From positions 1-17,145 of the IMG/VR virus record IMGVR_UViG_2737471824_000005: a stretch of 17,145 nt of DNA; one strand, written 5' to 3'. This document shows, in pieces, positions 1-16,835 of this stretch. A program made the position numbers and the translations under genes. The number at the start of each line of letters is the position of its first letter. The first letter of the stretch is position 1. The notes under the pieces were generated by a model. The model saw only the letters and a list, made by a program, of their open reading frames with translations, searched no databases and was not told the origin of the DNA. This DNA is from a virus. Lineage: Duplodnaviria > Heunggongvirae > Uroviricota > Caudoviricetes.

Positions 1-573
1 ATGTTTTGCGAAGAAAAAGTAGCTCAAATGGCTGCATACCTACTTCTTAAGCGAGGTGGGCGCATGGCATATCTGAAATTGATGAAGCTGCTCTATCTGT
101 CTAACCGCAAGTCGATTTTGAAGCATGGCAGGATGATCGGCGAAGATAGCCTTTACTCTATGAAATTTGGTCCAGTCATGTCGAATACGCTGAACTTGAT
201 TCGTGGTAAGGCTGAAGGTATTGGTGACTACTGGTACAACCTGATAGAGACGAACGGGCATGATGTGTTGTTGCGTTCAGATCCGAGGGAAATGGATGCA
301 GACGAGGTCTTTGATGAGTTGAGCCGTGCAGATATCCGGATTTTAGATGAAATCTATTCTCTGTATGGGCATATGAACCGATTTGATCTCGCAAACATGA
401 CGCATTTAGAAAGCGTTTGTCCAGAGTGGCACAATCCTGGCAATTCTCGTAAGCCTATAGACCTGAAAGAAATGCTGATCAGTGAGGGTAAAAGCGAGGA
501 TGAGGCTAATCGTATAATTGGCAAAATGGAAGAATCTCAGAAACTTAAGGAATTTTCTTTGCAATTATCATGA
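1..573 (+). CDS. Panacea/DUF4065-like protein (SocA/PanA-type putative antitoxin); may be N-terminally cut by window edge
   Basis: ORF starts at base 1; N-terminal signature 'AAYLLLKRGGRMAYLKLMKLLYLSNRKS' resembles the conserved helix pattern of DUF4065/Panacea proteins; stop overlaps next start (ATGA at 570-573). Confidence 0.5.
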   Translation: MFCEEKVAQMAAYLLLKRGGRMAYLKLMKLLYLSNRKSILKHGRMIGEDSLYSMKFGPVMSNTLNLIRGKAEGIGDYWYNLIETNGHDVLLRSDPREMDADEVFDELSRADIRILDEIYSLYGHMNRFDLANMTHLESVCPEWHNPGNSRKPIDLKEMLISEGKSEDEANRIIGKMEESQKLKEFSLQLS

Positions 574-989
574 CGGATTATCAGCCATACAGGAAAGGAA
601 CTGTGCTTGCCCCAACTGGGCCATGCAATCATCTTCATGTGATTTGTAATGATCCTGTTTATTACCCCGTTAACGATTGTTATTGTGTTTTAGTTGTTAA
701 TATTTCTAGTATCAAGGATGGTGTCCCCCACGATCCGTCTTGCGTCTTGAATTCTGGTGATCATCGCTTTATCAAGCATCCAAGTTATGTTGTTTACGCT
801 GAAGCTATAATTTGGCGAGTGGATAACATGGTTAGAAAGCAGCGATCGGGTGAGATTTCCGTTCATGATGATATGCCAGAAGCTACATTCAATAGAATTC
901 TGGACGGTTTTGATATATCTGATGAAGTTACGCCAAAGAACCTTAAATTTAAAAATAAATATTGCGTATCATCTATTGATGATGAGTAA
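570..989 (+). CDS. hypothetical 139-aa protein, translationally coupled partner of the Panacea-like gene (candidate toxin)
   Basis: ATG at 570 overlaps upstream stop (ATGA); no domain recognised by eye. Confidence 0.4.
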   Translation: MTDYQPYRKGTVLAPTGPCNHLHVICNDPVYYPVNDCYCVLVVNISSIKDGVPHDPSCVLNSGDHRFIKHPSYVVYAEAIIWRVDNMVRKQRSGEISVHDDMPEATFNRILDGFDISDEVTPKNLKFKNKYCVSSIDDE

Positions 990-1028
990 ACAACAGGAAT
1001 TGTTTCGGTATAGCTTCTGGAGTTTTCT

Positions 1029-1202
1029 ATGGAAGATCAAAAAGCAACCAAGCCACAGGTTAAGTTCGACACAATGAAAGCATTCGCAGGTATGGGTGCT
1101 GCTGTTGAAGTTCTGATGAAGGCTGCTCCTAATGCGTTCACTCACGCTACTGTCTCTGGTAAAGAGCAGCAGGGTAAGCTTCGTCGTCGCAAAGCAGCAT
1201 GA
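1029..1202 (+). CDS. small hypothetical protein (57 aa) 'MEDQKATKPQVKFDTMKAFAGMGAAVEVLMKAAPNAFTHATVSGKEQQGKLRRRKAA'
   Basis: Below the ORF-track length cutoff; GGAG 6 nt upstream of ATG 1029; codon choice biased to GCT/GTT/CGT/GGT; followed by a strong hairpin plus T-run. Confidence 0.35.
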   Translation: MEDQKATKPQVKFDTMKAFAGMGAAVEVLMKAAPNAFTHATVSGKEQQGKLRRRKAA

Positions 1203-1221
1203 TCATAGCTGGTGCTTTTTG

Positions 1222-1250
1222 AAAACCCGCCTTTAGGCGGGTTTTTTCTT
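1222..1250. terminator. putative bidirectional rho-independent terminator between convergent genes
   Basis: AAAACCCGCC-ttta-GGCGGGTTTT hairpin (1223-1246) followed by T-run on + strand; lies directly after the PrtN-like stop on the - strand. Confidence 0.6.
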
Positions 1251-1531
1251 TAGTGATGTTCTTTGCCCTTCTGTTTGCCTGTTCTGACCTGTTCCCACTC
1301 GATACGTCCTTCTTCTCGTCTTTTGTCTATGTATTCCGCAAGATCCTGAATATTGATGCAACGTTTTGCTTTTTGTGATGCACCGATGCGATATGTAGGT
1401 ACAGGCAACTTACAAGCGTTTGCTTTTGCTTCTGCTGTGGCTGGACTCATACCAAAGTATTTTTGACTAACTGCTGAGAGTTCAATGTTTGGGGTATTGA
1501 ATTCAGCCATCAGTAAAAACAAGGTATTCAT
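1250..1531 (-). CDS. PrtN-like (pyocin-activator family) small DNA-binding phage regulator
   Basis: 93 aa; segment 'YFGMSPATAEAKANACKLPVPTYRIGASQKAKRCINIQDLAEYID' matches the PrtN/excisionase-like HTH family pattern as I recall it; GGAG 8 nt upstream of ATG. Confidence 0.55.
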   Translation of the reverse strand: MNTLFLLMAEFNTPNIELSAVSQKYFGMSPATAEAKANACKLPVPTYRIGASQKAKRCINIQDLAEYIDKRREEGRIEWEQVRTGKQKGKEHH

Positions 1532-1567
1532 ATCATTTCTCCATCATAACCGGCTGCACCCGGTGAG

Positions 1568-2383
1568 TTACTTATTCATTTCAATAATATTATTTTCTAT
1601 CATTGATTTATTTAAAACCAAAGAAGGAGCAAGATGGTTGTCTATTTTAAACAATGCATAACTTTTAAACTGTTGGTGATATCCGTAACTAATAAGGATG
1701 CTAGAAAAATCTCTTAATTCATCTTCTTTTAAAAAATTAAAATGAAATGGGTTGTCACCATTTATGAACAATGAAACATCTATTATGCAGTATTTCTCTC
1801 CGTTGTCATTTGCATAGAAAAAAATATAAGACATTCTGTTTGTTAAGACAATGCCATTAAATTTTCTTATGTCTGTAGCTATTTTGTTTTCCATGTTTGG
1901 TGCTACATATTTATTTTCAGAAATACATTTAATTTCATCTCCAGATGTCGTGATTATATAAAAATGAAACTTATCAGAAATATCTAACTTAACTACGCCA
2001 TCATTATTGTAAAGGCTGCTAAATTTTGGTGGTTCAACTTTTAAAGAATCATAGTTCTTTAAAAGAAGAGGGGAGTCAAATTTAATAACTTGTAGTATCC
2101 CTTTACCTTCAACCTCCATATTGATTGAAGATATAGCAATTGCATTATCTCTTTTATTATTCAGGATTATGGTTGATATATGCATGTCATATATTCTACT
2201 TGCATTTGCTGAATACGACACTGTCACCTTTTTTGATATTTTTTGCACGCCAAAATATATAGTGAAGGCAGCGGCAAGAATAGATAAGAATTTAATGTCA
2301 AATAAGGACCATAGCCACATTAGTTGCTCAATTGCTTCAGAGTTAATCATTTGCTTTACCATTATCGCTGTAATACAACACAT
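1568..2383 (-). CDS. AT-rich hypothetical protein with N-terminal transmembrane anchor (candidate moron)
   Basis: ORF open to 2401 but that codon is TTG; first ATG at 2383 (others at 2362, 2350); hydrophobic segment 'LMWLWSLFDIKFLSILAAAFTIYFGV'; visibly lower GC than flanking genes; no recognisable domain. Confidence 0.5.
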   Translation of the reverse strand: MCCITAIMVKQMINSEAIEQLMWLWSLFDIKFLSILAAAFTIYFGVQKISKKVTVSYSANASRIYDMHISTIILNNKRDNAIAISSINMEVEGKGILQVIKFDSPLLLKNYDSLKVEPPKFSSLYNNDGVVKLDISDKFHFYIITTSGDEIKCISENKYVAPNMENKIATDIRKFNGIVLTNRMSYIFFYANDNGEKYCIIDVSLFINGDNPFHFNFLKEDELRDFSSILISYGYHQQFKSYALFKIDNHLAPSLVLNKSMIENNIIEMNK

Positions 2384-2504
2384 GTGTGTATATATACGCA
2401 ATGCAATTATTTTGCAAGTGCTTCATTTACTATCAATAGCTACGTCACGTTATTGTTTAATGGTTCTTTATAGGGGCGGCAATAGTTAAAATTATCGCTT
2501 CCGT

Positions 2505-2526
2505 AAATGCCCCCGCAGGGGCATTT
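2505..2526 (-). terminator. hairpin downstream of the DUF2303-like gene (possible terminator or RNA stability element)
   Basis: AAATGCCCC-cgca-GGGGCATTT 9-bp stem; no clean U-run on either strand. Confidence 0.3.
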
Positions 2527-2538
2527 GCAGTAATGAAA

Positions 2539-3363
2539 TCAGGCGGTGAAAGTACCAATAAAGGTTTCTACTTTGCTGTCTTTGAATTTCTCAACAAGCA
2601 GATCACGAAATTCGTTAGCCATTTCTTCCTGTACCGCTTCCAGCTGAATAATGCGCAGAACCAGTACAGGACGATCGCCAGTGATAATGCTGAGGCGTAA
2701 TTTAAACGGACGTTCTTTCAGACCTTCAAACGGAACGCATTTAAATTCAAATGCCACTGGCATAATGTCTTTGGTCTTCGCTTCGACAGACTCCATCAGG
2801 GAGCGTTTGCCGCTGAAGTCATTATCTTCAAAATCAGCGGTCTGGTTCGCTTCAATTGTGATTTTACGGATCGCCGCAGCCGCTTTGGTTGCCTGAATGG
2901 CGTCACCATTAGCATCAAAGCCCACAAGGTAGTCGGCCCAGTCTTCAATCCATTCTGCCAGTGACTTCTGGGAGTTACGCTCGCCATTAACAGACAACAG
3001 AGCAGAGAACGGAGCTGTCTTTTTCAGTTTGAGAGTGGCGGTGTTATCTGCGTGACCTGGTTCATCAATAGTACCCAGGTTAAGAACACTGACGGCACGC
3101 ATATTATCAGCATCGATAAAGCAGCGGGTGCCTTCATCTGCAAGATCTTTAGAATAACGAGTAAAGTCATCGATGCTGGCAGTGGAAAGCGCACCACGGA
3201 AACGGAAACGATTTAAATTTAATTTTTCCAGATCATGAATGCGGAAATTCTCAGGCAATGCCACAGCATCGGCACCAATCTTACTGATAATTTCATTAAC
3301 ACCCTGAGCAGAAATAAGGGCATGGATTTGATTAATTGCGGTTGCGTCTAAGTTCTGAGACAT
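2539..3363 (-). CDS. YfdQ-like prophage protein (DUF2303 family), 274 aa
   Basis: ATG at 3363 with GAGGA upstream; length and position downstream of a 120-aa gene match the yfdP-yfdQ pair of enterobacterial prophages; assignment from memory of family length and context, not an alignment. Confidence 0.55.
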
Positions 3364-3428
3364 AATAAGTCCTCACTATATAAAGATATTCAGTGATGAG
3401 ATAAATAATCGGTTAATTAAGAACGATA

Positions 3429-3791
3429 TTAATGACCTGCTGCGCGGAGTTTTCCGTCAGGTTCACCGGCAAGAGTCAGTAATTGTCCCTGGTCTTCCTG
3501 CAGAATAGTCAGGCGACCACCGCGATTGACATACATCGGCGTTTCGGTGGTGTCTTCTTCGGAAATTTTCCCGCGGTTAGTCGGGCGAACATATGAGAGT
3601 TTGTGTTTGATTTTCACACGGTTCTCATCAAATGGTTCGATTTCCAGGTTGAGTGAGACCTTACCTTTGGTTTTCGTATTCATCACACCGGAAGCGACTT
3701 CACTGAGAACTGCGCCGATTTTGGTTTCAAATACGCCGCCGTCCAGCTCCCCAATAAATGCCTGCACATCAGTACTGCGTTCGCTAGCCAT
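3429..3791 (-). CDS. YfdP-like prophage protein, 120 aa
   Basis: Track ORF extends to 3977, but ATG at 3791 is preceded by AGGAG 8 nt upstream; product 'MASERSTDVQAFIGELDGG...' is 120 aa. Confidence 0.5.
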   Translation of the reverse strand: MASERSTDVQAFIGELDGGVFETKIGAVLSEVASGVMNTKTKGKVSLNLEIEPFDENRVKIKHKLSYVRPTNRGKISEEDTTETPMYVNRGGRLTILQEDQGQLLTLAGEPDGKLRAAGH

Positions 3792-4406
3792 TTTGCTGCT
3801 CCTAATCATATCGACCCTGCAAGGTCGGTTGGTTTCTCCACAAAACAGAGAAGAACACCTGCGGTGGCAGCCGCCCGGATGGATTTGGTTATGAGCCCGT
3901 CGTCCGGTGATGCTCTTCTCTGTTTTGTAAAAAGAGCGGTACCAGCCGGAAGCAAGTGTACAAACTGGTACCGCCAAAGCAGTGGCTGTTGTGGTGACCG
4001 GTGCTGATCTCCGGCTTGCGGTTATTTCAGACTCTCACGGGCGTTTAATTGCCCCGCCGAACAGCTCTTTTCCGCATTAGCTGCAATGTCTTTCGCGCAT
4101 CAGCCTGCGCATTCACCACAACGCTGAGAGCACTTAGCCAGTTACGGCACCACACTTTGTCGCGGTTCCATAAATGTCCTCATCGTTGCACCCTGGTCTC
4201 TTCCCAGGCGTCAAACCGAATCGCCACGCTGGTTAGGCGTCTTATCAGCATCATCATTGACTTGCACATTCCGGCTACCTGGTTTGTTTGCCCGAGCAAG
4301 GAGTGGATTGTCCCCTTTAACGTCCCCAGACCGCTAACGACGCATGTGCCATACGCCGTGTTACAACCAAATTTTGTTTAATCTTGCCTGTGCTGTGTTT
4401 CTTTTA

Positions 4407-4439
4407 GATACATTATGTATCCCAAAGGTACATTGTCAA
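4407..4439 (-). promoter_or_regulatory. putative leftward sigma70 promoter (pL-like) overlapped by a perfect 15-bp palindrome operator
   Basis: On - strand: TTGACA (4434-4439), 16-nt spacer, CATAAT (4412-4417); palindrome GATACATtATGTATC at 4407-4421. Confidence 0.45.
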
Positions 4440-4442
4440 GTA

Positions 4443-4466
4443 TAAAAAAACCTGCCGAAGCAGGTT
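4443..4466 (-). terminator. rho-independent terminator after the repressor gene
   Basis: AACCTGC-cgaa-GCAGGTT hairpin followed on the - strand by a run of 7 U; sits 12 nt past the cI stop. Confidence 0.6.
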
Positions 4467-4477
4467 ATAAATATTGA

Positions 4478-5152
4478 TTAGGCCTTTATTATGTATCTTC
4501 TTGGTTTTCCTGAGAAAATCACTGTACCAATTATAGAGCAATTACCGTTAATCTTAATGTAAGGCTCAGGCCAGTTTGGGTTTAATGCTTTGAGATAACG
4601 CTGTGTTCCATCTTCTATCAACCGCTTGAAGGTGGTTTCGCCTGTATCGTGCATCAATGCAATAACGTCGTCACCGTGGCAGGCAGGGACTTCAGGATCA
4701 ACAAAAATCATGTCTCCCGGGCGGTACTCATCAATCATTGAATCACCAATCACCCGCAAGATATAAGTCATTTCGCCACAGGGTACAGGGCAGGGATAAG
4801 TTTCTGCTGTGCTCAAATCAACCTCAGAATAGCCAACTTCTTTCCATGCTCCGGCCTGTACCCATGATATGACAGGGACTAACGTTATTTGTTTGTTAGT
4901 GATTGAAACGTCAGGTTTTTTTGTGATGTTCGTTGTCTGGTGTTCTTGATCAAGCCATCCGACAGGCAGGTCGAAACATTTTTCGATGTGCCGTGCCATG
5001 CTGTCACCGATATTTTTAGTTGCACCATCTCCCATAAACCTGCTGGTCTGGGTTGGCTCGCGATCAATCATGGTGGCAAAGGAAGAATTCCCGCCAACAC
5101 CATCTCTCAGTTTTCTGGCGTTAGACCGCCGGATGTCATGGACTGTTTTCAT
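4478..5152 (-). CDS. cI: CI-type prophage repressor (N-terminal HTH, C-terminal S24 LexA-like autopeptidase)
   Basis: 224 aa; S24 motifs 'VIGDSM' (Ser) and 'FKRL' (Lys); divergent to a Cro-like gene; start 18 nt from an operator palindrome. Confidence 0.8.
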   Translation of the reverse strand: MKTVHDIRRSNARKLRDGVGGNSSFATMIDREPTQTSRFMGDGATKNIGDSMARHIEKCFDLPVGWLDQEHQTTNITKKPDVSITNKQITLVPVISWVQAGAWKEVGYSEVDLSTAETYPCPVPCGEMTYILRVIGDSMIDEYRPGDMIFVDPEVPACHGDDVIALMHDTGETTFKRLIEDGTQRYLKALNPNWPEPYIKINGNCSIIGTVIFSGKPRRYIIKA

Positions 5153-5169
5153 AAAGAAATTAAAACCTT

Positions 5170-5186
5170 TGTACCGATAAGGTACA
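5170..5186. promoter_or_regulatory. 17-bp operator palindrome in the divergent cI/cro control region
   Basis: TGTACC-gataa-GGTACA, perfect 6-5-6 inverted repeat; a second imperfect copy is centred near 5229 overlapping the cro Shine-Dalgarno. Confidence 0.55.
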
Positions 5187-5242
5187 AGTATCTTGAAGGT
5201 TCATCTCAATCATGTAATATGTATACCGGAGGTACATATTGT

Positions 5243-5443
5243 ATGAAAGCGTATTGGGACTCTTTAACCAAAGAACAGCAGGGTGAGTTGGCCGGAAAAG
5301 TTGGCTCAACACCAGGCTACTTACGGCTGGTTTTCAATGGTTATAAAAAAGCCAGTTTTGTGCTGGCTAAAAAACTTGAGCAATGCACGTCAGGTGCAAT
5401 TACGAAATCTGACTTAAGACCGGATATCTATCCGAAAGATTAA
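5243..5443 (+). CDS. cro: Cro-like small HTH regulator (66 aa)
   Basis: Real start is the internal ATG 5243 with GGAGG 10 nt upstream; product 'MKAYWDSLTKEQQGELAGKVGSTPGYLRLVFNGYKKASF...'; divergent to cI. Confidence 0.6.
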   Translation: MKAYWDSLTKEQQGELAGKVGSTPGYLRLVFNGYKKASFVLAKKLEQCTSGAITKSDLRPDIYPKD

Positions 5444-5474
5444 CAGAACACCTTCAATTTTTAACCACAGAACG

Positions 5475-6038
5475 ATGAGGCTAACCGTGGGTAAGCATCA
5501 CTGGAAAGTAGAAAAACAGCCTGAGTGGTACGTGAAAGCTGTCAGAAAAACTATCGCGGCGTTGCCGGGGGGTTACGCTGAAGCTGCTGAGTGGCTGGAT
5601 GTAACAGAGAACGCTTTATTCAACCGCCTTCGTGCAGATGGCGATCAGATTTTCCCGCTGGGATGGGCAATGATTTTACAGCGCGCGGCTGGCACTCACT
5701 ACATTGCGGATGCTGTCGCACAGTCTGCTGGTGGGGTGTTTGTATCGCTTCCTGAAATTGAGGAAGTAGAGAACGCCGATATAAACCAGCGCCTGCTGGA
5801 AGTCATCGAACAGATCGGGAGTTACTCAAAGCAGATTCGTTCGGCAATCGAAGATGGGGTAGTGGAGCCACACGAGCAGACAGCAATTAATGATGAGTTG
5901 TATCTGTCAATTTCGAAGCTCCAGGAGCATGCAGCACTGGTCTACAAAATCTTTTGCGCTCCAGAAAAGAGTGACGCCCGCGAGTGTGCAGCTCCGGGCG
6001 TCGTGGCGTTTTGTGTCTGTGGAGAAACTAACGCATGA
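5475..6038 (+). CDS. CII-like / phage regulatory protein (family uncertain)
   Basis: Positioned immediately after cro; alternative GTG start at 5487 has GAGG upstream; stop overlaps next start (ATGA). Confidence 0.4.
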   Translation: MRLTVGKHHWKVEKQPEWYVKAVRKTIAALPGGYAEAAEWLDVTENALFNRLRADGDQIFPLGWAMILQRAAGTHYIADAVAQSAGGVFVSLPEIEEVENADINQRLLEVIEQIGSYSKQIRSAIEDGVVEPHEQTAINDELYLSISKLQEHAALVYKIFCAPEKSDARECAAPGVVAFCVCGETNA

Positions 6039-6871
6039 ACAGTTTAACGGCAAATAACCGTTTGTCGCAACAGCTGGTGGTCAGCGTCGCTGAACACCTG
6101 TTGTTACGGCATGAATGCAGATTACCAAATCACCTGGCTGTAAGTAACCACAGAGAACTTTACCTGACTGTGGGGGGCGAGTTGTGCAGGAACTTAACCG
6201 CTGGTTTCGTGACGGAAGAGGACTTTATGTTCATGTTATTCGTTAGGAGCCAGAAACACAGCGCGTTATCTATCTTCGCAAAGACTACCCGCATGAGTGC
6301 TTTAGTCCTTTGTGGAAATTCAGGCGTGATTTTGTTGAGTGTGAAGGACCACCAGCACATTGATTCTGCCATTCCGGGACGTTACACTGTTCAGGCACCT
6401 TATAAAGCGGGTGCCGGGATTGGCGTCCTGGAATTGATCAAGGCGATATATGACGCGCCAGCGTCTTTTTTATCGTCCGCATTTGCTCACATCAAAGTTA
6501 TGGTGGGCTGGGCGGGGGCATCGAAAGATGCGCCGGTTTCCTTGATCACCGGTTACGCCAACCCCGTTCAGTTCACCACCAGCGAAATTGGCGTTTCCGG
6601 TGGTGGAAGTATTTCACCGATCAAGGAGGCTGCCATCATGGCTACTGTCCCAGCCCTCACTCGTCTGAATGATGAAGACTTACATAAACTCAGTTATGTA
6701 ACAACTGCACTACGTGCTCTGCGCAAGGTAACTCTTTCGGATCCGCAGGCACATCAGGTTCTGGTAGAAACCCTTCTTAACTTGCAAGCTGAACGTATTC
6801 GTCTGGCGGATAAGGCTAATTTTCATATTCACCGTCTCCTGAATATCAGCGGAGGGCATCGTCATGCTTAA
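6035..6871 (+). CDS. hypothetical 278-aa protein; C-terminal part may derive from a tape-measure gene
   Basis: GGAG 9 nt upstream of ATG; coupled to flanking ORFs; segment 'LLNLQAERIRLADKAN' resembles my recollection of an internal lambda H segment (unverified). Confidence 0.4.
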   Translation: MNSLTANNRLSQQLVVSVAEHLLLRHECRLPNHLAVSNHRELYLTVGGELCRNLTAGFVTEEDFMFMLFVRSQKHSALSIFAKTTRMSALVLCGNSGVILLSVKDHQHIDSAIPGRYTVQAPYKAGAGIGVLELIKAIYDAPASFLSSAFAHIKVMVGWAGASKDAPVSLITGYANPVQFTTSEIGVSGGGSISPIKEAAIMATVPALTRLNDEDLHKLSYVTTALRALRKVTLSDPQAHQVLVETLLNLQAERIRLADKANFHIHRLLNISGGHRHA

Positions 6872-7100
6872 TCCGTTGATCCTCAATATTTGCCGTTTGC
6901 TTCAGCGTAAAAAAATATCAATTCCTACAGTTGGGCAGTGGTACACCACGCCTGCAGGGCATGTTCTACGTGTTAGCCTGGTTGACCGTGAATGCCAGAA
7001 GGTGATTTGTGAACCGCTGGGCCGTAATTACCGCGTCAGTATGCCGCTTATAGCCTTTCGCTCCGGAAAAAACATGAAGCATCTCGGAGGTGCAGCATGA
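6864..7100 (+). CDS. hypothetical 78-aa protein (possible tape-measure-derived fragment)
   Basis: GGAGGG 6 nt upstream of ATG; overlaps neighbours by 8 and 4 nt. Confidence 0.3.
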   Translation: MLNPLILNICRLLQRKKISIPTVGQWYTTPAGHVLRVSLVDRECQKVICEPLGRNYRVSMPLIAFRSGKNMKHLGGAA

Positions 7101-7327
7101 GTATGGAGCTGATGGTTAAAGCGATGAAAATTCGAGTGGGTATTGGTGGTTCAGGTATGGCGATGTTTGCCCCGCAGTACAACATCGAGATCAATAACGA
7201 TGGCACGAACGGGCAGATAGGTCCGGCTGCCCTGAAGGTGGTTTATGACCTTGGGAAAAAAGCGGCAGCGGACTTTATGCAACAGCAGGCCCGTGATGGT
7301 GGTCGGTTAAGTGGAGCATATCGGTAA
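7028..7327 (+). pseudogene. H: 3' remnant of tail tape measure gene H
   Basis: Frame opens after a stop at 7025-7027; 'INNDGTNGQIGPAALKVVYD...DGGRLSGAYR' matches the lambda H C-terminus as I recall it; an internal ATG at 7097 has a GGAGG SD; stop overlaps the M start (TAATG). Confidence 0.6.
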
Positions 7328-7656
7328 TGGAGACGTTTCACTGGAAAGTGCGCCCGGATATGAATGTGGTATCAGAGCCGAAAGTGGTGACAGTGAAGCT
7401 GGGCGATGGTTATGAACAGCGTCGTGCGGCGGGACTGAATAACCAGTTGTCGATTTACAGCGTGACGATACGTGTTCGTAAATGTGAACACCCATCTTTA
7501 AAAGCCTTTCTGGAACGGCACGGTGGCGTCCGCGCATTTCAGTGGACGCCACCTTATGACTGGAAGCCGATCAGGGTGGTTTGTCGTAAATGGTCGGCAA
7601 GCGTGGGGGCGCTGTGGGTAACCATAACGGCAGATTTTGAACAGGTCGTGGCATAG
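7327..7656 (+). CDS. M: minor tail protein M
   Basis: 109 aa, same length and clear similarity to lambda gpM (e.g. 'GDGYEQR', 'HGGVRAFQWTPPYDWKPIRVVCRKWSA'); conserved lambda gene order. Confidence 0.9.
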   Translation: METFHWKVRPDMNVVSEPKVVTVKLGDGYEQRRAAGLNNQLSIYSVTIRVRKCEHPSLKAFLERHGGVRAFQWTPPYDWKPIRVVCRKWSASVGALWVTITADFEQVVA

Positions 7657-7665
7657 GAGGCTCTG

Positions 7666-8364
7666 ATGCAGGATATTCCACAGGAAACACATCATGAGAC
7701 GACACGCCTCACTCAGTCAGCCCAGGTGGTGCTCTGGGAAATCGATCTGACAGTGGTCGGTGGAGAACGTTATTTTTTCTGTAATGAGCAGAACGAAAAA
7801 GGTGAGCCGGTCACCTGGCAGGGGCGACAGTATCAGGCGTATCCCATTCAGGGGACGGGATTTGAACTGAACGGCAAGGGCAGTGCTGCCCGTCCGACAC
7901 TGACGGTTTCTAACCTGCACGGCATGGTCACCGGGATGGCGGAAGACCTGCAGAGTCTGGTCGGAGGAACGGTGGTCCGGCGTAAGGTTTACGCCCGCTT
8001 TCTGGATGCGGTGAACTTCGTCAACGGAAACAGCGAAGCCGATCCGGAGCAGGAGGTGATCAGCCGCTGGCGCATCGAGCAGTGCAGCGAACTGAGCGCG
8101 GTGAGTGCCTCTTTTGTACTGTCCACGCCGACGGAAACGGACGGTGCCGTTTTTCCGGGACGTATCATGCTGGCCAACACCTGCACCTGGACCTATCGCG
8201 GTGATGAGTGCGGTTATCACGGTCCGGCGGTCGCGGATGAATATGATCAGCCGACGTCCGATATCACGAAGGATAAATGCAGCAAATGCCTGAGTGGCTG
8301 TAAGTTTCGCAATAATGTCGGCAACTTTGGCAGCTTCCTTTCCATTAACAAACTTTCGCAGTAA
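7666..8364 (+). CDS. L: minor tail protein L
   Basis: 232 aa; near-identical over long stretches to lambda gpL as recalled; AGGAGG SD. Confidence 0.9.
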   Translation: MQDIPQETHHETTRLTQSAQVVLWEIDLTVVGGERYFFCNEQNEKGEPVTWQGRQYQAYPIQGTGFELNGKGSAARPTLTVSNLHGMVTGMAEDLQSLVGGTVVRRKVYARFLDAVNFVNGNSEADPEQEVISRWRIEQCSELSAVSASFVLSTPTETDGAVFPGRIMLANTCTWTYRGDECGYHGPAVADEYDQPTSDITKDKCSKCLSGCKFRNNVGNFGSFLSINKLSQ

Positions 8365-8369
8365 ATCCC

Positions 8370-9113
8370 ATGACACAGACAGAATCAGCGATTCTGGCGC
8401 ACGCCCGGCGATGTGCGCCAGCGGAGTCGTGCGGCTTCGTGGTGAGAACGCCGGAGGGGGAAAGATATTTTCCCTGCGTGAATATCTCCGGTGAGCCGGA
8501 GGATTATTTCCGGATGGCTCCGGAGGACTGGCTGCAGACAGAAATGCAGGGTGAGATTGTGGCGCTGGTCCACAGCCACCCCGGTGGTCTGCCCTGGCTG
8601 AGTGAGGCCGACCGGCGGCTGCAGGTGCAGAGTGATTTGCCGTGGTGGCTGGTTTGCCGGGGGGCGATTCACAAGTTCCGCTGTGTGCCACATCTTTCCG
8701 GGCGGCGCTTTGAGCACGGGGTGACGGACTGTTACACGCTGTTCCGGGATGCTTACCATCTGGCGGGGATTGAGATGCCGGATTTTCATCGCGAGGATGA
8801 CTGGTGGCGTAACGGTCAGAATCTCTATCTGGATAATCTGGAGGCCACAGGGCTGTATCAGGTGCCGTTGTCAGCGGCGCAGCCGGGCGATGTGCTGCTG
8901 TGCTGTTTTGGTTCATCGGTGCCGAATCATGCCGCCATTTACTGTGGTGACAGCGAGCTGCTGCACCATATTCCTGAACAACTGAGCAAACGAGAGAGGT
9001 ACACCGACAAATGGCAGCGACGCACACACTCCCTCTGGCGTCACCGGGCATGGCACGCATCTGCCTTTACGGGGATTTACAACGATTTGGCCGCCGCATC
9101 GACCTTCGAGTGA
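8370..9113 (+). CDS. K: tail assembly protein K (JAB/MPN + NlpC/P60 domains)
   Basis: 247-aa ORF; JAMM motif 'HSHPGGLPWLSEAD'; Cys/His of NlpC/P60 ('DCYTLF', 'HAAIY'); the classically annotated 199-aa lambda K would start at internal ATG 8514. Confidence 0.85.
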   Translation: MTQTESAILAHARRCAPAESCGFVVRTPEGERYFPCVNISGEPEDYFRMAPEDWLQTEMQGEIVALVHSHPGGLPWLSEADRRLQVQSDLPWWLVCRGAIHKFRCVPHLSGRRFEHGVTDCYTLFRDAYHLAGIEMPDFHREDDWWRNGQNLYLDNLEATGLYQVPLSAAQPGDVLLCCFGSSVPNHAAIYCGDSELLHHIPEQLSKRERYTDKWQRRTHSLWRHRAWHASAFTGIYNDLAAASTFE

Positions 9114-9658
9114 AAACGGGGTCCGAAGCCATCCGGGCGCTGGCCATGCAGAACCCGGCGTTTCGTCAGAAACTGAGCGACGGCTGGTACCAGGTACGCA
9201 TTGCCGGGCGTGATGCAGGTGAAACCGAATTGTCTGCCCGTCTTAATGAGCCGCTGGCAAATGGTGCCGTGATCCACATCGTGCCGCGTCTGGCGGGAGC
9301 TAAAAGTGGAGGTGTGTTTCAGGTGGTGCTGGGGGCGGCGCTGATTGCGGTGGCATGGTGGAACCCTGTGGGCTGGCTGGGTGCCGCGGCTGTATCGGGC
9401 ATGTATGCGGCAGGGGCCAGTATGATCCTGGGCGGAGTGGCGCAGATGCTGGCACCGAAAGCCAGGACGCCCACGGCAGCAAGTACAGATAACGGCAAAC
9501 AGAACACCTATTTCTCCTCACTGGATAACATGGTTGCCCAGGGCAATGTTCTGCCGGTTCTGTACGGTGAAATGCGCGTGGGGTCTCGCGTGGTTTCTCA
9601 GGAGATCAGCACGGCAGACGAAGGGGACGGTGGTCAGGTTGTGGTGATTGGTCGCTGA
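9011..9658 (+). CDS. I: tail assembly protein I
   Basis: 215 aa, strong similarity to lambda gpI at both termini; overlaps K by 103 nt, which I recall is also true in lambda. Confidence 0.85.
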   Translation: MAATHTLPLASPGMARICLYGDLQRFGRRIDLRVKTGSEAIRALAMQNPAFRQKLSDGWYQVRIAGRDAGETELSARLNEPLANGAVIHIVPRLAGAKSGGVFQVVLGAALIAVAWWNPVGWLGAAAVSGMYAAGASMILGGVAQMLAPKARTPTAASTDNGKQNTYFSSLDNMVAQGNVLPVLYGEMRVGSRVVSQEISTADEGDGGQVVVIGR

Positions 9659-9676
9659 TGCAAAATGTTTTATGTG

Positions 9677-9696
9677 AAACCGCCTGCGGGCGGTTT
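9677..9696 (+). other. hairpin between I and J (possible attenuator)
   Basis: AAACCGCC-tgcg-GGCGGTTT 8-bp stem followed by TGTCATTT. Confidence 0.3.
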
Positions 9697-9718
9697 TGTC
9701 ATTTATGGAGCGTGAGGA

Positions 9719-10705
9719 ATGGGTAAAGGCAGCAGTAAGGGGCATACCCCGCGCGAAGCGAAGGACAACCTGAAGTCCACGCAGCTGCTGAGTGTGATCG
9801 ATGCCATCAGCGAAGGGCCGGTTGAAGGTCCGGTGGATGGATTAAAAAGCGTGCTGCTGAACAGTACGCCGGTGCTGGACAGTGATGGGAATACCAACAT
9901 CGCCGGTGTCACGGTGGTGTTCCGGGCCGGTGAGCAGGAGCAGACTCCGCCGGAGGGATTTGAATCCTCCGGCTCCGAGACGGTGTTGGGTACGGAAGTG
10001 AAATACGACACGCCGATCACCCGCGCCATCACGTCGGCAAACATCGACCGACTGCGCTTTACCTTCGGCGTGCAGGCACTGGTGGAAACCACCTCAAAGG
10101 GTGACAGGAATCCGTCGGAAGTCCGTCTGCTGGTTCAGATACAACGTAACGGTGGCTGGGTGACGGAAAAAGACATCACCATTAAGGGCAAAACCACCTC
10201 GCAGTATCTGGCCTCGGTGGTGGTGGGTAGCCTGCCGCCGCGCCCGTTTAATATCCGGATGCGCAGGATGACGCCGGACAGCACCACAGACCAGCTGCAG
10301 AACAAAACGCTCTGGTCGTCATACACCGAAATCATCGATGTGAAACAGTGCTACCCGAACACGGCACTGGTCGGCGTGCAGGTGGACTCGGAGCAGTTCG
10401 GCAGCCAGCAGGTGAGCCGTAATTATCATCTTCGCGGGCGCATTCTGCAGGTGCCGTCGAACTATAACCCGCAGACGCGGCAATACAGCGGTATCTGGGA
10501 CGGAACGTTTAAGCCGGCATACAGCAACAACCCGGCCTGGTGTCTGTGGGATATGCTGACCCACAGCAACACGTCTCTGGCGTGGGGAGCTGGCGTGCAG
10601 TTTAACCCGACCGAATCCGTGGCCATTGATATTGCTTATGAAGGCTCCGGCAGTGGCGACTGGCGCACTGACGGTTTCATCGTGGGTGTCGGTTATAAGT
10701 TCTGA
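9719..10705 (+). CDS. J: truncated tip attachment protein J (first ~283 aa) fused in-frame to the last ~45 codons of lom
   Basis: N-terminus matches lambda gpJ ('MGKGSSKGHTPREAKDNLKSTQLLSVIDAISEGP...') up to '...WCLWDMLTH'; then continues as Lom-like C-terminus 'AWGAGVQFNPTESVAIDIAYEGSGSGDWRTDGFIVGVGYKF'. Confidence 0.8.
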   Translation: MGKGSSKGHTPREAKDNLKSTQLLSVIDAISEGPVEGPVDGLKSVLLNSTPVLDSDGNTNIAGVTVVFRAGEQEQTPPEGFESSGSETVLGTEVKYDTPITRAITSANIDRLRFTFGVQALVETTSKGDRNPSEVRLLVQIQRNGGWVTEKDITIKGKTTSQYLASVVVGSLPPRPFNIRMRRMTPDSTTDQLQNKTLWSSYTEIIDVKQCYPNTALVGVQVDSEQFGSQQVSRNYHLRGRILQVPSNYNPQTRQYSGIWDGTFKPAYSNNPAWCLWDMLTHSNTSLAWGAGVQFNPTESVAIDIAYEGSGSGDWRTDGFIVGVGYKF

Positions 10706-10731
10706 TTAGCCAGGTAACACAGTGTTATGAC

Positions 10732-10759
10732 AGCCCGCCTGTTCAGGCGGGCTTTTTTG
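10732..10759 (+). terminator. rho-independent terminator after the J-lom fusion
   Basis: AGCCCGCCTG / CAGGCGGGCT stem followed by TTTTTT. Confidence 0.7.
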
Positions 10760-10769
10760 TGGGGTGAAT

Positions 10770-13700
10770 ATGGCAGTAAAGATTTCAGGTGTACTGAAAG
10801 ACGGCACAGGAAAACCGGTACAGAACTGCACAATCCAGCTGAAAGCAAAACGTAACAGCACCGCGGTGGTGGTGAACACGCTGGCCTCAGAAAATCCGGA
10901 TGAAGCCGGGCGTTACAGCATGGACGTTGAGTACGGTCAGTACAGCGTTATTCTGTTGGTGGAAGGCTTCCCGCCATCGCATGCCGGGACCATCACCGTG
11001 TATGAAGACTCACAACCGGGTACGCTGAATGATTTTCTCGGTGCCATGACGGAGGATGATGCCCGTCCGGAGGCACTGCGCCGTTTTGAGCTGATGGTGG
11101 AAGAAGTGGCGCGTAACGCGTCCGCGGTGGCACAGAACACGGCAGAGGCTGCTATTTCTGCCTCTCAGGCCGAAGAGTTCGCGAGCAATGCTTCTGAATA
11201 TGCGCTGAATAAGTTCACGTTCTATAAAACGCCGAGCGATCCGGACGGTACAATTGCAGGCCTTGCTGCTACTACCAGCGGGCAGTCTTTCCGTGTAGCG
11301 GAAGGCCCGGGAGCAACAGCGGCATTCAAAACCTACGAGAACCAGGATGGCGTGGCTATACTACAGGCTTCTCAGCCAGGCACAGCTGCTATAACAGGGA
11401 CAATCCGCGAATTTCCCACGCTGGAGGCGGCACAGGCTGATGCAGACGCTGGCAATATTCTTTCTGGTTCAAAATGCTGGGTAACCAGTGCTATAAATAC
11501 CTCGCTGGCTGACGAGTATGTAAATACATCCGGGGTTATGACTGCAACCGGGAGAACAATTATTTCCCAGTACAGCCTATCTTCGTCTATATCAAGAGAA
11601 GCAACCAGAAGAAAAAATGGTGATTATCAGGATTTGATTGAATTCAAATCTCTTGATGATACAGCACTACCATTACCGGAAAATTCAGTATTAGAATTTT
11701 TGTCTCTGGCAACCACTACGGATGTAAACACAAACTTCTATCGCCTTGTTTTTTCTTCGCTGGGTTCTGAGGTTGCGTCACTGGTTTTTCCTGGGACGAA
11801 CACCCAGTATTCTGATGGTAAATTCTGGTCAGCGTATCGCCTGTTCCGATTTCAGGATTTGAAGTATGTTTCCATTCTGGAAACGACCAGTAGTGTAGTT
11901 CGGGTTCGCTATGACCTGCCGGCTGGGTTTGGTGTTCCGGTAGCAGGCTCAAACTATATTGCACTTGATATTACAGGCAAGTTTTATCCGGCGCAGGCAG
12001 GCTCAGTTAACTCCGTCACAAGGAAGTCAATATCCGGGACAGCAATTGCCAACGCCATTCAGTTCGTGGTTACCATCGCTGAACTTACGGCTGCTGGTTA
12101 TACGGCGTCGACCGTTGTTGATTACATCAACTCAATAGCGCCAGATTGCCTCTTTGCGGCATATGCGGCATATGATACGACGATTGCCCAGACAGGGTTT
12201 GAAGATTTTTTCAGGATTCAGTTACCTGCTGGTGATTATACCGTTAGCCGTGATGGCTTTGCGCCTTCAGGACTGGCAGTGTTACCTGCCGGTGCGTATT
12301 CGGTATGGCGTAAAAAGCCTGTAAGGCAGGTATTTGTTGGAAACTTCCTGAGAAATGTTGCTGATGTTAAAAATCTGCTGTCGGCAGAATATAAAAACTA
12401 TCCCGTTGAGCTTAAGGTGTCGTTTGGTCCCGGCGAAGTGCCAGACTCCGATGCGCTGAAGGTGATGGACGCTGACGGCAACGTGTTTGACTGCCAGTTT
12501 GCGGATAACGTTTATCCCAATCCACGCCTGAAATCGAACACCGGATACCATGCCGACGGCTCCCTGGCATCAGGGTCTGTGTTCATCACCGATACCCTGG
12601 CATCAGGACAGCAGAAATATTACGAACTCAGGGCATACAATCGTCGCCGCCAGGACCTGGCCTCAGAGTCCTTCCCGCAGCTCGTGAGGGTGGCTGACGG
12701 GTTCACCGTTACCGTGGGCGGGTATGTGTATTTTTTCCAGCGCCAGAACAGCCTGGGGCTGACCAGTATCACCGACCCGGCAGGACAGACGCACAGTTTT
12801 GCGCATTCCTGTTACTGTACCGGGATTGTCTCCGGCGGATCCTCAAGTAACCAGATGGTGCTCGGTGCATCACTGCGCATGGTTAATACCGGGCCGGTCT
12901 TTACTGAGCTGGAGCTGACCGTCAGAAACCGGACCATCGGAACACTGGCTGAAGGGGCGTTACAGTCCACAGTACGCTACCGGATTTTCAAAAATGGCAA
13001 GGTGCTTATCCGGGTCATGACCACGGCTACGCAAGATATTCCGGCTGGAGTATTATTTGGTGCATATTCCCGTCTGAACCTGAATGATGGTGCATATACC
13101 TTTGATGCCGCTAGAGCACTGACGTACTGGACGGATTCAGTCACCGGCAAGCGATTTACGGCCACGACGGTCTTTGCTAATGGGGATATCCACCGAGATG
13201 GCCCTGCTTATGGGCCAACGCGCCCGATACGGGCAACGGCGCTGCAACCCACAGGCACAACAACTCGGCTGGACGCGGGATGGCTTTTCGTTGACCTGAA
13301 TGACGATTCATTCCTGAACTGGCCTGTGCCAAAAAACTGGACGTGGACACATGAGACATGGATTGACTGCGACAACACCATCACCAGTTCCACCTCAGAG
13401 GTTAATGCACTGCTGGTAAGTCAGGCTAACAACCGCCCGGTAGGGTTCATGGGTGATTGCAGTTATGCAGGTGTTCTGCGGCTGGACATGCTGGAGAAAA
13501 TCGCCTGTCACGTCAGGGGATCCGTTGAGTGGTGGAAAAGCACTGACGCTACTGTTTATGGTGGCGGACCCGATGTGAAAACGCAGTTCTATTGCCACAT
13601 GGCAGAGATTTTTCTGTTAGAAAAGTATGGCATCAGCACGCTGAACACAGTGTATACGAATTTTAAATCGTACATGAGGGGATTTGGCGGCATAACTAAT

Positions 13701-14504
13701 CCAGGTATTATGTTCACTGATGGATGGTGGGGGTTGCAGTTCCAGTCGCGTCTGAGTATTCCGTGCTATGAGTGGCTCTACAAAATGGCGGTGAAGGCCG
13801 GAGATACAGCCAAACAAACCGAGCTGAAGGCGGGGATTAAATCCCTCGCGGATGCCGTCATGGTGTCATATAACACCTATGGTGGCGTGGCTCTGGTGGG
13901 GACAGCCACAAACTCAGGAAACAGCAACTCTAACGCGACAGCCATGCGCGTGCTGGCGCTGGCGATTTATATGGGGCTGGATACCGGCGGGACGTACCTT
14001 GCTGCATTCAATGCGCTGGAGACCTTCATCACGAACTCAGCGACATTCATGAAAGCGGAAAACATTATTCTCGATGGCCCGTCGGATTCCACGCTGAAGA
14101 GCATGTACCTGCCGTACATGGTTTACGCCACTAATAACTACCTGCTGGCCTGCAAGCTGCTTAACCGGACACCAAAGTTTGACCTGGTGAATTTTATCCT
14201 GACAGCGTCAAACAGCGCGGGAGGATTCAGTGAGGTGGATTACTGCATCTCTGAAAGCCGACGTGGTGGCGCGAACACCATCGCGTTTGCGTTACTGCCG
14301 CTGTTTCAGTCCGCCAGGCCGTCAGCAATGATTGCCGCAAAATCGCTGTTCGGAATTTTTGAGACGCAGTACGGGCCGAAACCGGGACTACCAAAGCGCT
14401 TCTTTGATTTTGACGGCAGCAGTGCGGCTGGCAGCACGATGTATGACCCGTGCTTTGTGGCGTCAACGCTTGCCGACCTTTGGCTGTCATATGGCTACAA
14501 TTAA
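10770..14504 (+). CDS. stf: side tail fibre protein, chimeric: lambda Stf-like N-terminal ~150 aa plus ~1,100-aa non-Stf distal region
   Basis: ATG at 10770 (track starts at GTG 10764); N-terminus matches lambda/Rac Stf; the Ala/Ser-rich shaft and Gly/His-rich distal repeats of lambda Stf are absent. Confidence 0.8.
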
Positions 14505-14662
14505 TGGAAAATAGAAATCAGGATGCTGCAGATCTGGAAATCGCAACGGAGGAAGAAACCTCGTTGCTGGAAGCCTGGAAAAAGTATCGGGTGTTGCTGA
14601 ACCGTGTTGATACATCAACTGCACCTGATATTGAGTGGCCTGCGGTCCCTGTTATGGAGTAA
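14504..14662 (+). CDS. tfa: tail fibre assembly protein remnant (C-terminal 52 codons of tfa)
   Basis: '[47 protein letters not shown]' matches the conserved Tfa C-terminus; ATG shares a base with the stf stop (TAATG). Confidence 0.6.
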
Positions 14663-14676
14663 TCGTTTTGTGATAT

Positions 14677-14710
14677 GCCGCAGCAACTTGTCATGGCAGG
14701 ATACTGCGGC
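14677..14710 (+). terminator. possible terminator of the tail fibre operon
   Basis: GCCGCAG / CTGCGGC 7-bp stem with a large 20-nt loop, followed by T-rich sequence. Confidence 0.3.
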
Positions 14711-14774
14711 TGATTTGTGAATTTAAATAGTGTGTTTATTGCTTTATATATAAAGGATTTAATGGATTACATAT

Positions 14775-16145
14775 CTATGATATCCCTGAAATGTCCTCTT
14801 CAAGCTCTTTTACTGATTTCGCAATTTTAAATTTAAATTTTCTCTCTATTTCACTATTGCTAAGTTTTTTTTCATTCTCTTTCCCTATCCACATAGAAAC
14901 AATTTCTCGTTTCTGAGATATATGTAGATTGTCAAAGTTAGGTATGTATTTAAAAGTCTCCGCTCTACCCCTGCGGAGTTCATAGAAAGTTTTAATCAAA
15001 GACTTTGGTTTTATTTCTGATGAAAGGCCGAATCGGCGGATAAGATTATTGATCGTATGATTAACAGCTCGAAGTTGAGCTGTTGACGTTATTTGTGAGA
15101 AGTACGATACCCATCCCAATCGTTTACCTTCAAACACACATCCCGTAATTCTAAGATTTAGTTTCCACTGACAATATGCAACAGCTCGTTCTTTATCGCG
15201 CTTATTTTTAGCTTGTAGTAGAGCGTGTCTATATGCAGTAAAAATTTTTGCTAAGGATGACTCAAATCTAAGAATGCTCTCATGTTTTATCAATAATTCT
15301 CGATTTTTTATGTGGTAGCCCAAAAAGTTGAAACTTTCATCCAAGCTGCCTACTTTGGATTTTGAGTTCTCTTCATTTAATGGATGTGGGTTTAAATTTA
15401 ATGATTGAAGCTTATCAATGATATGAGAAGCTATTTTTGTTGCTTGATATTTTGGTGTTAAAATAAGAATGTCATCAACGTATCGCATGTACCATATGTC
15501 ATGCATTTTATTGATTTCATCATCGAAATTAGATAGTGATATTTCAGCTAAAATGTTTGATATCGCTAATCCCTGAGGTACTCCTCTGGTATTATTAGGG
15601 ATACCTTTGCTTCCTGTGGTTCCACTTACAGTAGGCACGATTAATGATGATGTTATTAACTGTCTAATTTCTTTTTTTCTAATTTTATTTTTTATTGCAT
15701 TAATTATCAATTTATGTTCAATTGAAGGATAGAAACTTTTAAGATCTATTTTTGCATATTCAGCATATAGACTGTTGTTTAATGCTTCTTTCAATGAGTC
15801 AATTACTGTATGTGGTAGTTTTAATCTGGACTTAGGATATATTTCCGTAAGGCATTCACAGAGAGCTCTAAGAGTAATTCTGTCCCTAGCAGTTGGTATG
15901 GAAATCTGTCTGGGTGTAGAGTTAGCGCCTTTAGATATTAATTTTTCTTTATATGCTGTAAATTTGTAATTGCCAGAATTAACCTTTTCAAAAATGAAAG
16001 TGATCTCATTTTTTATTGTCAAATCAAGTTTTGATGGGCGAATCCGATCTATGCCAATCGCTCCTGATTCTTTGATTTTTTCAGAGTATACTTTTAGAAG
16101 ATTTTTTTTCGAGAATGACTTTTTAAAAATTCTGCTTGCAGTCAT
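14775..16145 (-). CDS. reverse transcriptase, retron-like or UG/Abi (DRT) type
   Basis: RT motifs: 'IGIDRIRPS', 'IDLKSFYPSI' (motif A), 'RGVPQGLAISNILAEISL' (motif B), 'YVDD' at 15471-15482 (motif C), 'FLGY', and thumb-like 'RITG' at 15141-15152; track start 16151 is TTG, first ATG is 16145; overlaps the upstream membrane gene; AT-rich. Confidence 0.9.
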   Translation of the reverse strand: MTASRIFKKSFSKKNLLKVYSEKIKESGAIGIDRIRPSKLDLTIKNEITFIFEKVNSGNYKFTAYKEKLISKGANSTPRQISIPTARDRITLRALCECLTEIYPKSRLKLPHTVIDSLKEALNNSLYAEYAKIDLKSFYPSIEHKLIINAIKNKIRKKEIRQLITSSLIVPTVSGTTGSKGIPNNTRGVPQGLAISNILAEISLSNFDDEINKMHDIWYMRYVDDILILTPKYQATKIASHIIDKLQSLNLNPHPLNEENSKSKVGSLDESFNFLGYHIKNRELLIKHESILRFESSLAKIFTAYRHALLQAKNKRDKERAVAYCQWKLNLRITGCVFEGKRLGWVSYFSQITSTAQLRAVNHTINNLIRRFGLSSEIKPKSLIKTFYELRRGRAETFKYIPNFDNLHISQKREIVSMWIGKENEKKLSNSEIERKFKFKIAKSVKELEEDISGIS

Positions 16146-16674: not shown

Positions 16675-16694
16675 AAAAGATCCTTTTTAAAAGC

Positions 16695-16829
16695 GGAAGG
16701 GGCAGGATATATTGGAACCGTTGAACATCCTGCCCGGCAGGATCAGTGAGCATAAGCTCAACAGTAAAATATTACTGTTCATTATCAGAGCCGCCCTTGC
16801 ATGCGCAAGAGGAAAAACCTGCCCCATCC
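16695..16829 (-). ncRNA. candidate structured ncRNA (retron msr-msd-like) in the leader of the RT operon
   Basis: 12-nt inverted repeats (11/12 match) at 16818-16829 and 16695-16706 flank hairpins at 16796-16809, 16760-16779 and 16747-16760, and a GGCAGGAT/ATCCTGCC palindrome at 16727-16743. Confidence 0.35.
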
Positions 16830-16835
16830 CTTTGA

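Follow-up and report, generated by a model that had tools for sequence, protein, structure and literature searches.

The window analysed here is the whole stretch of 17,145 nucleotides at positions 1 to 17,145 of the IMG/VR virus record IMGVR_UViG_2737471824_000005, and it corresponds to a cryptic lambdoid prophage inserted into dusA, beside zur. In closely matching genomes, a 5' fragment of dusA precedes the Panacea gene found at window position 1, and the integrase gene and an intact dusA lie past the right end. This work is focused on one minus-strand gene of its early-left region, which encodes a 260-residue protein of family PHROG 14996 with a predicted membrane anchor. The gene is non-core, mobile and compositionally foreign accessory cargo, and its relatives are nearly always found on mobile elements (prophages, integrative/conjugative elements and small plasmids) with no conserved partner gene. 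From these contexts it is tentatively proposed that the product protects the cell carrying it against other phages.

The gene and its predicted protein

In the list of open reading frames (ORFs) of the window, the gene appears at 1568-2401 (-), starting from a TTG at 2401 and coding for 277 residues, and these boundaries had been adopted in an earlier, sequence-only reading. The minus-strand ORF stands, whereas its start is moved to the ATG at 2348-2350, because the extent of the family profile, the length of the RefSeq coding sequence (CDS) and the N-termini of the homologues agree on it. The CDS is therefore placed at 1568..2350 (-), with the stop codon at 1568-1570. The PHROG 14996 profile (positions 1-260) covers residues 5-264 of the 264-residue translation from ATG 2362, that is, it begins at ATG 2350, and in E. 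coli O25b:H4 a 783-nucleotide (nt) CDS is annotated at the same place (WP_047654657.1). The equivalent M-[IL/Y]-N is the N-terminus of every homologue, and in two Klebsiella homologues a strong GGAGG-like Shine-Dalgarno sequence stands before that methionine. Neither any homologue nor the profile extends upstream of ATG 2350, and on this basis the 5' extension of the ORF, 2351..2401 (-), is considered non-coding. Another ORF, of 122 residues, is located at 2121-2489 (+), antisense to the 5' part of the gene and its upstream region, and has probably arisen as a by-product of AT-richness.

The composition of the gene is far from that of its surroundings. It contains 29.0% guanine plus cytosine (GC), with a value of 0.26 at third codon positions (GC3), against 48.3% elsewhere in the window, and among all 783-bp stretches it has the lowest GC, just 0.02% of them being equally low. 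The protein is rich in Ile (12.7%), Ser (9.6%), Asn (9.2%) and Lys (8.5%), and Asn, Ile, Lys, Phe and Tyr together make up 42% of it, compared with 25-28% in the neighbouring proteins. Both the low GC and the Asn/Ile/Lys bias had been noticed in the sequence-only reading. AT-richness is also a property of the family, as GC contents of 27-37%, which are 5-21 points under the surroundings, were obtained in 11 of the 11 contexts measured. The ratio of non-synonymous to synonymous substitution rates (dN/dS) between the two E. coli alleles (the query and an allele with 93% identity) is 0.36, and across more distant comparisons the proportion of non-synonymous differences (pN) is far below that of synonymous ones (pS). 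The gene is thus real and under purifying selection, and it evolves fairly fast.

The match to PHROG 14996, a family of unknown function, has an E value of 2e-178 over the entire protein. With a word-indexed search, 11 clusters were recovered, confined to E. coli, Citrobacter and Klebsiella, whereas exhaustive phmmer searches yielded 151 representatives (50% clustering) at E <=0.001, 68 of them at <=1e-10, and nearly all of the 151 have 232-276 residues. Eighty were aligned; all of them match PHROG 14996, fall within that length range and share a common architecture. When an alignment of close members was used to look for related loci, a single species-representative genome was recovered. Members whose organism could be identified belong to Gammaproteobacteria only, the named genera being Escherichia, Citrobacter, Klebsiella, Raoultella, Buttiauxella, Providencia, Vibrio, Marinomonas, Pseudomonas and Acinetobacter. 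Sequence and profile searches of the protein against Pfam, NCBIfam, PADLOC and PDB gave no match, in agreement with the earlier statement that no domain was recognised, and no meaningful Pfam or PADLOC match was obtained for the 80 relatives. The literature search did not return any paper mentioning WP_047654657 or phrog_14996. The family is catalogued but uncharacterised. Compositionally foreign membrane-protein cargo of prophages is, as a kind, familiar.

The AlphaFold model, built with 11 homologues (predicted local distance difference test, pLDDT, 80; predicted template modelling score, pTM, 0.63), runs from a long helix (residues 4-39) through a beta-sandwich (42-141) and a linker of low confidence (145-151) to an alpha/beta domain (152-260). 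The sole hydrophobic segment of the protein, at residues ~12-35 (2246..2317, -), shows a Kyte-Doolittle mean of 1.68 over 19 residues and falls within this helix, and so the single N-terminal transmembrane helix described previously is borne out. It is preceded by an acidic N-tail and followed by a Lys-rich flank (K37, K40 and K41). Among the 80 members, the N-tail has ~12 residues and is acidic, the C-side flank holds a mean of 2.4 Lys and Arg residues and the N-side flank 0.6, and 67 have more of them on the C-side. According to the positive-inside rule, the positively charged flank of a membrane helix marks the cytoplasmic side. From the charge bias and this rule, the N-tail is predicted to be periplasmic and the globular part cytoplasmic.

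Residues 42-141 (1928..2227, -) could be superposed on immunoglobulin-like (Ig-like) or carbohydrate-binding-module-type (CBM-type) sandwiches, and they carry two conserved turn motifs, N65-x-[KR]-D68 and P94..K98..[DE]101. No structural neighbour was found for the C-terminal alpha/beta domain, residues 152-260 (1571..1897, -); judging from the model, this domain has a fold not seen in solved structures, and both family and fold would be new. Near-invariant in the family are K37, N65, P94 and S111 together with one Gly and one Asn, most of them in turns, followed by D68, K98, [DE]101, C142 and Y179, which are 83-88% conserved. No catalytic constellation is apparent among the conserved residues of the alignment, and we infer that the protein is non-enzymatic. 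Conservation is highest in the membrane helix and juxtamembrane region and at residues 61-70 and 91-100, and variability is greatest at residues 111-130 and 141-160 and in the C-terminal helix. With a median isoelectric point of 6.7, the soluble part is near neutral; net charges close to zero are found throughout the family, and a role as DNA mimic or DNA binder was rejected.

A variable slot and the mobile elements of relatives

The leftward early genes yfdP, yfdQ, the 260-residue gene and the excisionase gene xis are all on the minus strand, downstream of a cI-like repressor gene. The position between PrtN-like and DUF2303-like genes, already proposed from the sequence, was verified by profile matches. 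On the left, 36 nt downstream of the gene, the PrtN-type excisionase gene occupies 1250..1531 (-) (Pfam PyocinActivator/PrtN, E 4e-23; PHROG 'excisionase'), and on the right the YfdQ/DUF2303 gene occupies 2539..3363 (-) (E 8e-93). When the segment 1200-2600 was compared by megablast with 50,697 phage records, only the flanks matched: homology ends at ~1563 and restarts at 2489. The whole variable cassette is thus delimited at 1564..2488 (no strand assigned), as sequence missing from phages and prophages having both flanks.

The left junction lies 4 nt past the stop codon, and the distance of 36 nt to the xis start is exactly the same for the 260-residue gene and for the exonuclease gene found there in strain W24. 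This junction coincides with a short motif, AACCGGCTGCACCCGG, at window positions 1548-1563, and a similar motif, GCGCTGCACCGCGC, precedes yfdR in the W24 prophage (locus L019 of our collection, about 10760-10775). These motifs may be gene-boundary sequences for the exchange of modules in the early-left operon. On the upstream side, the gene has its own AT-rich region, as the sequence-only reading had pointed out: it covers 2351..2488 (-), has 34% GC and is private to the cassette along its 138 bp. Two pairs of promoter-like hexamers are located within it, TTGATA-16-CAAAAT at 2436..2409 and TACACA-18-GATAAT at 2390..2361, both on the minus strand. Just past the yfdQ stop, in the conserved flank and also in W24, a GC-rich hairpin, AAATGCCCC-loop-GGGGCATTT, is found at 2495..2516 (-); it is a weak candidate for a terminator upstream of the cassette, and it was not called in the terminator scan. 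Rfam searches did not reveal any RNA family in or near the cassette, and the upstream regions of family members show no conservation between contexts.

A survey of 5,426 complete E. coli genomes located the gene in 99 of them, always as a single chromosomal copy in the same slot and with 95-100% identity. The same excisionase is present in 741 E. coli genomes, and consequently about 13% of such prophages (99/741) contain the gene. Ninety-eight of the 99 copies are intact and one is cut by IS1; in that case, E. coli E89 (NZ_CP121157.1, 4392685-4394243), the copy is interrupted by IS1X2, the other copies being single uninterrupted matches. Seven to eight ordinary early genes fill the slot between xis and yfdQ in phage mEp460 and in the sister dusA prophage of strain W24; among them are an exonuclease gene, DUF551, yfdR, an Ea22-like gene and several small ORFs. 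Presence/absence variation at this position, which the earlier reading had expected from a comparison with related prophages, was therefore found. Horizontal acquisition as non-core cargo also holds, as homologues occur in unrelated slots and elements; the contrary outcome, a conserved core component, is contradicted by the 99 of 741 genomes.

The name of moron, also given to the gene in that reading, fits it in part. Like lambdoid morons (PMC3594210), it has a foreign composition (29% vs 48% GC), varies in presence among related phages and is not required by the phage to complete its life cycle. On the other hand, the cassette swaps out a gene block instead of being inserted between genes adjacent in relatives, where xis and yfdQ are seven to eight genes apart; no terminator follows the gene, since the conserved flank starts 4 nt past its stop; and the promoter-like matches upstream of it are at chance level.

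Outside the E. coli slot, the surroundings of the gene change from one element to another. In Citrobacter it lies directly upstream of a 68-residue ORF and an integrase gene, and the islands further upstream differ (loci L005 and L006 contain Antirestrict and RadC genes upstream). Two Klebsiella alleles, 42-45% identical to the query, share a prophage slot between an MT-A70 methylase gene and DUF1367, and their downstream genes are unlike each other. The 113-residue ORF downstream of one of them was considered as a partner and rejected because the second allele has another neighbour. In a metagenomic prophage the gene is placed between a PAPS reductase gene and xis-int, and in lambda-type IMG/VR prophages it is found either ahead of xis-int or, antiparallel, with an antirepressor gene on one side and a DUF4145 gene on the other. 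At L045 and L046 both neighbours are on the opposite strand. In the lambdoid IMG/VR prophage L042, the genes RmrT/RmrA (RosmerTA-like) are followed by a terminator-like hairpin and then by the family member; this group (4067-6783) forms a small defence cluster in a nin-like region before DUF1367. The relatives at L045 and L042 must have their own promoters, because of the opposite-strand neighbours in the former and the hairpin upstream in the latter.

Members from Vibrio, Providencia and Marinomonas form one cluster at >=90% identity across genera and are carried by a conjugative element with a type IV secretion system (T4SS), directly after the coupling-protein and LPD7 genes. Two small Acinetobacter plasmids also carry the gene, one of them with MazEF, and an HNH gene lies near it at a Buttiauxella prophage end (L017). 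Defence-type neighbours were found on other elements as well: a 280-residue ORF followed by a HamB-like (Hachiman-like) helicase gene downstream of the family member in metagenomic contig L016, an AAA_15/AAA_21 (OLD/Gabija-type) ATPase gene and BrnA on contig L050, and a HEPN_RiboL-PSP gene, with resolvase and integrase genes, on integrative element L052.

In two Pseudomonas P2-like prophages the gene is beside the portal gene, together with a STAND-like ATPase gene and, in one of them, RnlA/RnlB. This position is the gpA-gpQ defence hotspot of P2. The cos-proximal gpA-gpQ locus has been shown to be a defence hotspot which holds old and tin in P2 (Rousset et al., PMC9122126). In these prophages (L020, 6584-8759; L024, 6589-8759), an AAA_16/NB-ARC-like ATPase of 455-456 residues is encoded 41-49 nt upstream and weakly matches PADLOC PDC-S59. 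The two loci are closely related and therefore count as one observation, and the ATPase with the family member may be a lineage-specific two-gene arrangement. A general two-gene system with an upstream protein of 427-477 residues (Pseudomonas, Acinetobacter and Citrobacter) was rejected, as the three proteins are mutually unrelated.

The prophage remnant of the window has lost most lytic genes and has kept three modules that are cargo-like in composition or function. In the copy of strain NT1F34, 99.9% identical, a truncated regulatory gene runs straight into a truncated tail gene. Besides the 260-residue gene, one module is located 0.6 kb to its left. It contains a Panacea (SocA-like) antitoxin gene at 1-573 (+) (Pfam E 2e-18), which overlaps by 4 nt a 139-residue ORF at 570-989 (PHROG 19071), and the whole (1-989, +), at the end of the prophage proximal to att, resembles a toxin-antitoxin pair of the PanA type; W24 and mEp460 have an unrelated 534-nt ORF instead. 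The other module (14775-16674, -) is, at 33-36% GC, the one AT-rich island that the window has besides the cassette. It consists of a reverse-transcriptase (RT) gene at 14775-16151 overlapping a SLATT gene at 16123-16674, each with 100% identity to a RefSeq protein bearing that annotation. The module is flanked by the tail-fibre genes and by a DinI gene, the latter preceding the integrase gene just past the window, and looks like an RT-based defence pair. In addition, isrK (6395-6471, 64 bits) and C4 antisense RNA (6496-6583, 82 bits) exceed the Rfam gathering score on the plus strand, inside or beside a DUF4222/Ash-family region, which suggests that an antirepressor is under antisense control of the P1/P7 type in this lambdoid remnant.

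Possible roles of the family

The reading preferred here, from context, is that the gene encodes a stand-alone, non-enzymatic, membrane-tethered anti-phage or exclusion protein, and we consider its probability to fall slightly short of one half. It is based on the many kinds of mobile elements carrying the family, the accessory slots occupied (including an established hotspot), the recurrent defence or toxin-antitoxin neighbours and the intact retention of the gene in a decayed prophage. Held a little less firmly is the possibility that PHROG 14996 constitutes a new single-gene anti-phage system, membrane-tethered, non-enzymatic and facing the cytoplasm, with a novel C-terminal fold, which would stop phages at the inner membrane by blocking entry or by membrane-disrupting abortive infection.

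The cargo gene moves among temperate phages, integrative/conjugative elements and plasmids of Gammaproteobacteria. Its product is a single-pass inner-membrane protein, with a short acidic N-tail predicted in the periplasm and two non-enzymatic globular domains predicted at the cytoplasmic face of the membrane. According to the proposal, it would there shield the carrier cell, and hence the resident element, from incoming phages. This could be achieved in two ways: i) the protein would bind a component of the genome-entry apparatus and thereby block entry (exclusion), ii) the variable soluble parts would sense a phage protein, and the conserved helix would then damage the membrane (abortive infection). 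The architecture fits both entry block and sensing followed by membrane damage. Topology, expression in the lysogen, anti-phage role and mechanism are all inferred.

Several points weigh against an anti-phage role. The evidence from context comes from about 17 neighbourhoods inspected by hand without a background control, and the accessory slots of mobile elements also carry many genes that are not related to defence; in the sister prophages, the xis-yfdQ slot itself contains ordinary early-left genes and no defence systems. The query did not match any of the 5,027 models of PADLOC (PADLOC-DB 2.0.0) at E up to 1, and the 80 relatives gave just two chance-level PADLOC matches, of one member each; homology to SieA, SieB (Pfam PF14163), Imm or other annotated PHROG and Pfam families was not detected either. 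In tblastn searches, the gene was not found in 50,697 deposited phage genomes. The promoter-like sites of the upstream region are at chance level (5 found vs 6.4 expected by shuffling), and the terminator scan shows none between the stop of the gene and xis, so expression of the gene may be tied to that of the early-left operon and confined to induction. An E. coli gene with 29% GC is, besides, a typical target of H-NS silencing, and silencing of such AT-rich DNA is likely. Finally, bacterial Ig-like sandwiches are mostly extracytoplasmic and unusual in the cytoplasm, and for this reason the predicted orientation may be wrong.

Membrane cargo unrelated to phages, involved in conjugative entry exclusion, in an envelope or stress function or in lysogenic conversion, is the rival that survives best, and it is nevertheless considered unlikely. 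Entry-exclusion proteins have a single-pass inner-membrane architecture that resembles the 260-residue protein, and no defence domain is recognisable in the latter. The location after coupling-protein and LPD7 genes on a T4SS element and the presence on small plasmids point in the same direction. However, most contexts are prophages, where conjugative entry exclusion has little sense; entry-exclusion proteins are specific to their own T4SS, while PHROG 14996 moves among unrelated elements; and the recurrent adjacency to anti-phage genes would be left unexplained.

Somewhat less probable still is an accessory gene of the lytic cycle, expressed only after induction, together with yfdP, yfdQ and xis, and serving host takeover (for instance by inhibiting cell division or a membrane process) or exclusion during lytic growth. 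Such a gene would have the orientation of the leftward early operon, as is the case here, and would end 36 nt before xis like the exonuclease gene it replaces; the lack of a downstream terminator, the chance-level promoter matches and the co-directionality with the flanking operon in most phage contexts are also in its favour. It is difficult to reconcile with the family members on non-phage elements, with those opposing both neighbours at L045/L046 and with the Pseudomonas P2 hotspot, which lies outside any early operon. Moreover, the gene is intact in 98 of 99 genomes even though cryptic remnants have lost most lytic genes.

The family could alternatively be a membrane-tethered anti-defence protein that neutralises a host immune system, and this seems quite improbable. 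Anti-defence genes do evolve fast, and in phages and plasmids they too cluster in the variable accessory slots; antirestriction-type genes are near the family member in some islands (Antirestrict and RadC at L005/L006, and LPD7). Nevertheless, the near-neutral soluble part is not that of a DNA mimic, membrane anchoring is unusual among known anti-defence proteins, and the maintenance in a decayed cryptic prophage suggests a benefit for the host over one for the infecting phage. That the gene is a chance ORF in AT-rich junk DNA, where GC-rich constraints on stop-free frames are few and an antisense ORF of 122 residues is in fact present, is effectively refuted by the common length, architecture and motifs of 151 homologues, whose identities across genera are 20-64%, by pN far below pS and by confident AlphaFold models.

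If the anti-phage role is true, the gene would represent a compact single-gene system of 0.8 kb without any enzymatic domain, with a fold absent from solved structures and acting at phage genome entry. About 2% of complete E. coli genomes carry the gene, clinical lineages among them (APEC O78, an O25b:H4 strain and one named ST648), so the phage susceptibility of strains targeted by phage therapy could then be altered by it. If it is not, the window is still a clean example of a cryptic prophage keeping foreign cargo beside the Panacea and RT+SLATT pairs once its lytic genes have been lost.

Comparison with known systems

The inner-membrane exclusion proteins SieA from P22, gp15 from HK97 and Imm from T4 resemble the 260-residue protein in being phage- or prophage-borne, non-essential and encoded by variable accessory genes, and no sequence similarity to them was detected in PHROG and Pfam searches. 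SieA blocks DNA delivery without enzymatic activity and has 162-164 residues with three predicted membrane helices (PMC10883804). It lacks a large globular domain, whereas the 260-residue protein combines one helix with about 220 residues of folded domains.

Another likeness is with the membrane effectors of abortive infection, such as SLATT, Cap15-type proteins and RexB, which are encoded on defence islands and mobile elements and consist of membrane helices plus a small beta-rich soluble domain. Cap15-type effectors contain a transmembrane region plus a beta-barrel. These effectors need a partner sensor or a signal-producing enzyme, while PHROG 14996 has no conserved partner and shows no similarity to them in Pfam and PADLOC searches. 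It is thought that the membrane proteins of defence systems kill the cell once activated (PMC9122126).

In architecture, the protein also resembles SNIPE (PD-lambda-1), a membrane-bound nuclease that cuts phage DNA during injection and whose topology, with the N-terminus outside and the domains in the cytoplasm, has been shown experimentally (PMC13190303). The two proteins differ in their domains, since SNIPE has DUF4041 and a GIY-YIG nuclease and neither the PHROG 14996 query nor its 80 relatives match Pfam. They also differ in conservation: the N-terminal region is the least conserved part of SNIPE, in contrast to the helix and juxtamembrane region of PHROG 14996, which are the best conserved. 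On the other hand, both are encoded by single genes on E. coli mobile elements and have one N-terminal helix; the topology proven for SNIPE is the one predicted here from the charge bias of 67 of the 80 members. The inner membrane, the site of phage genome entry, is the place of action of SNIPE and the one proposed for PHROG 14996, and defence at this step has been shown only recently, for SNIPE.

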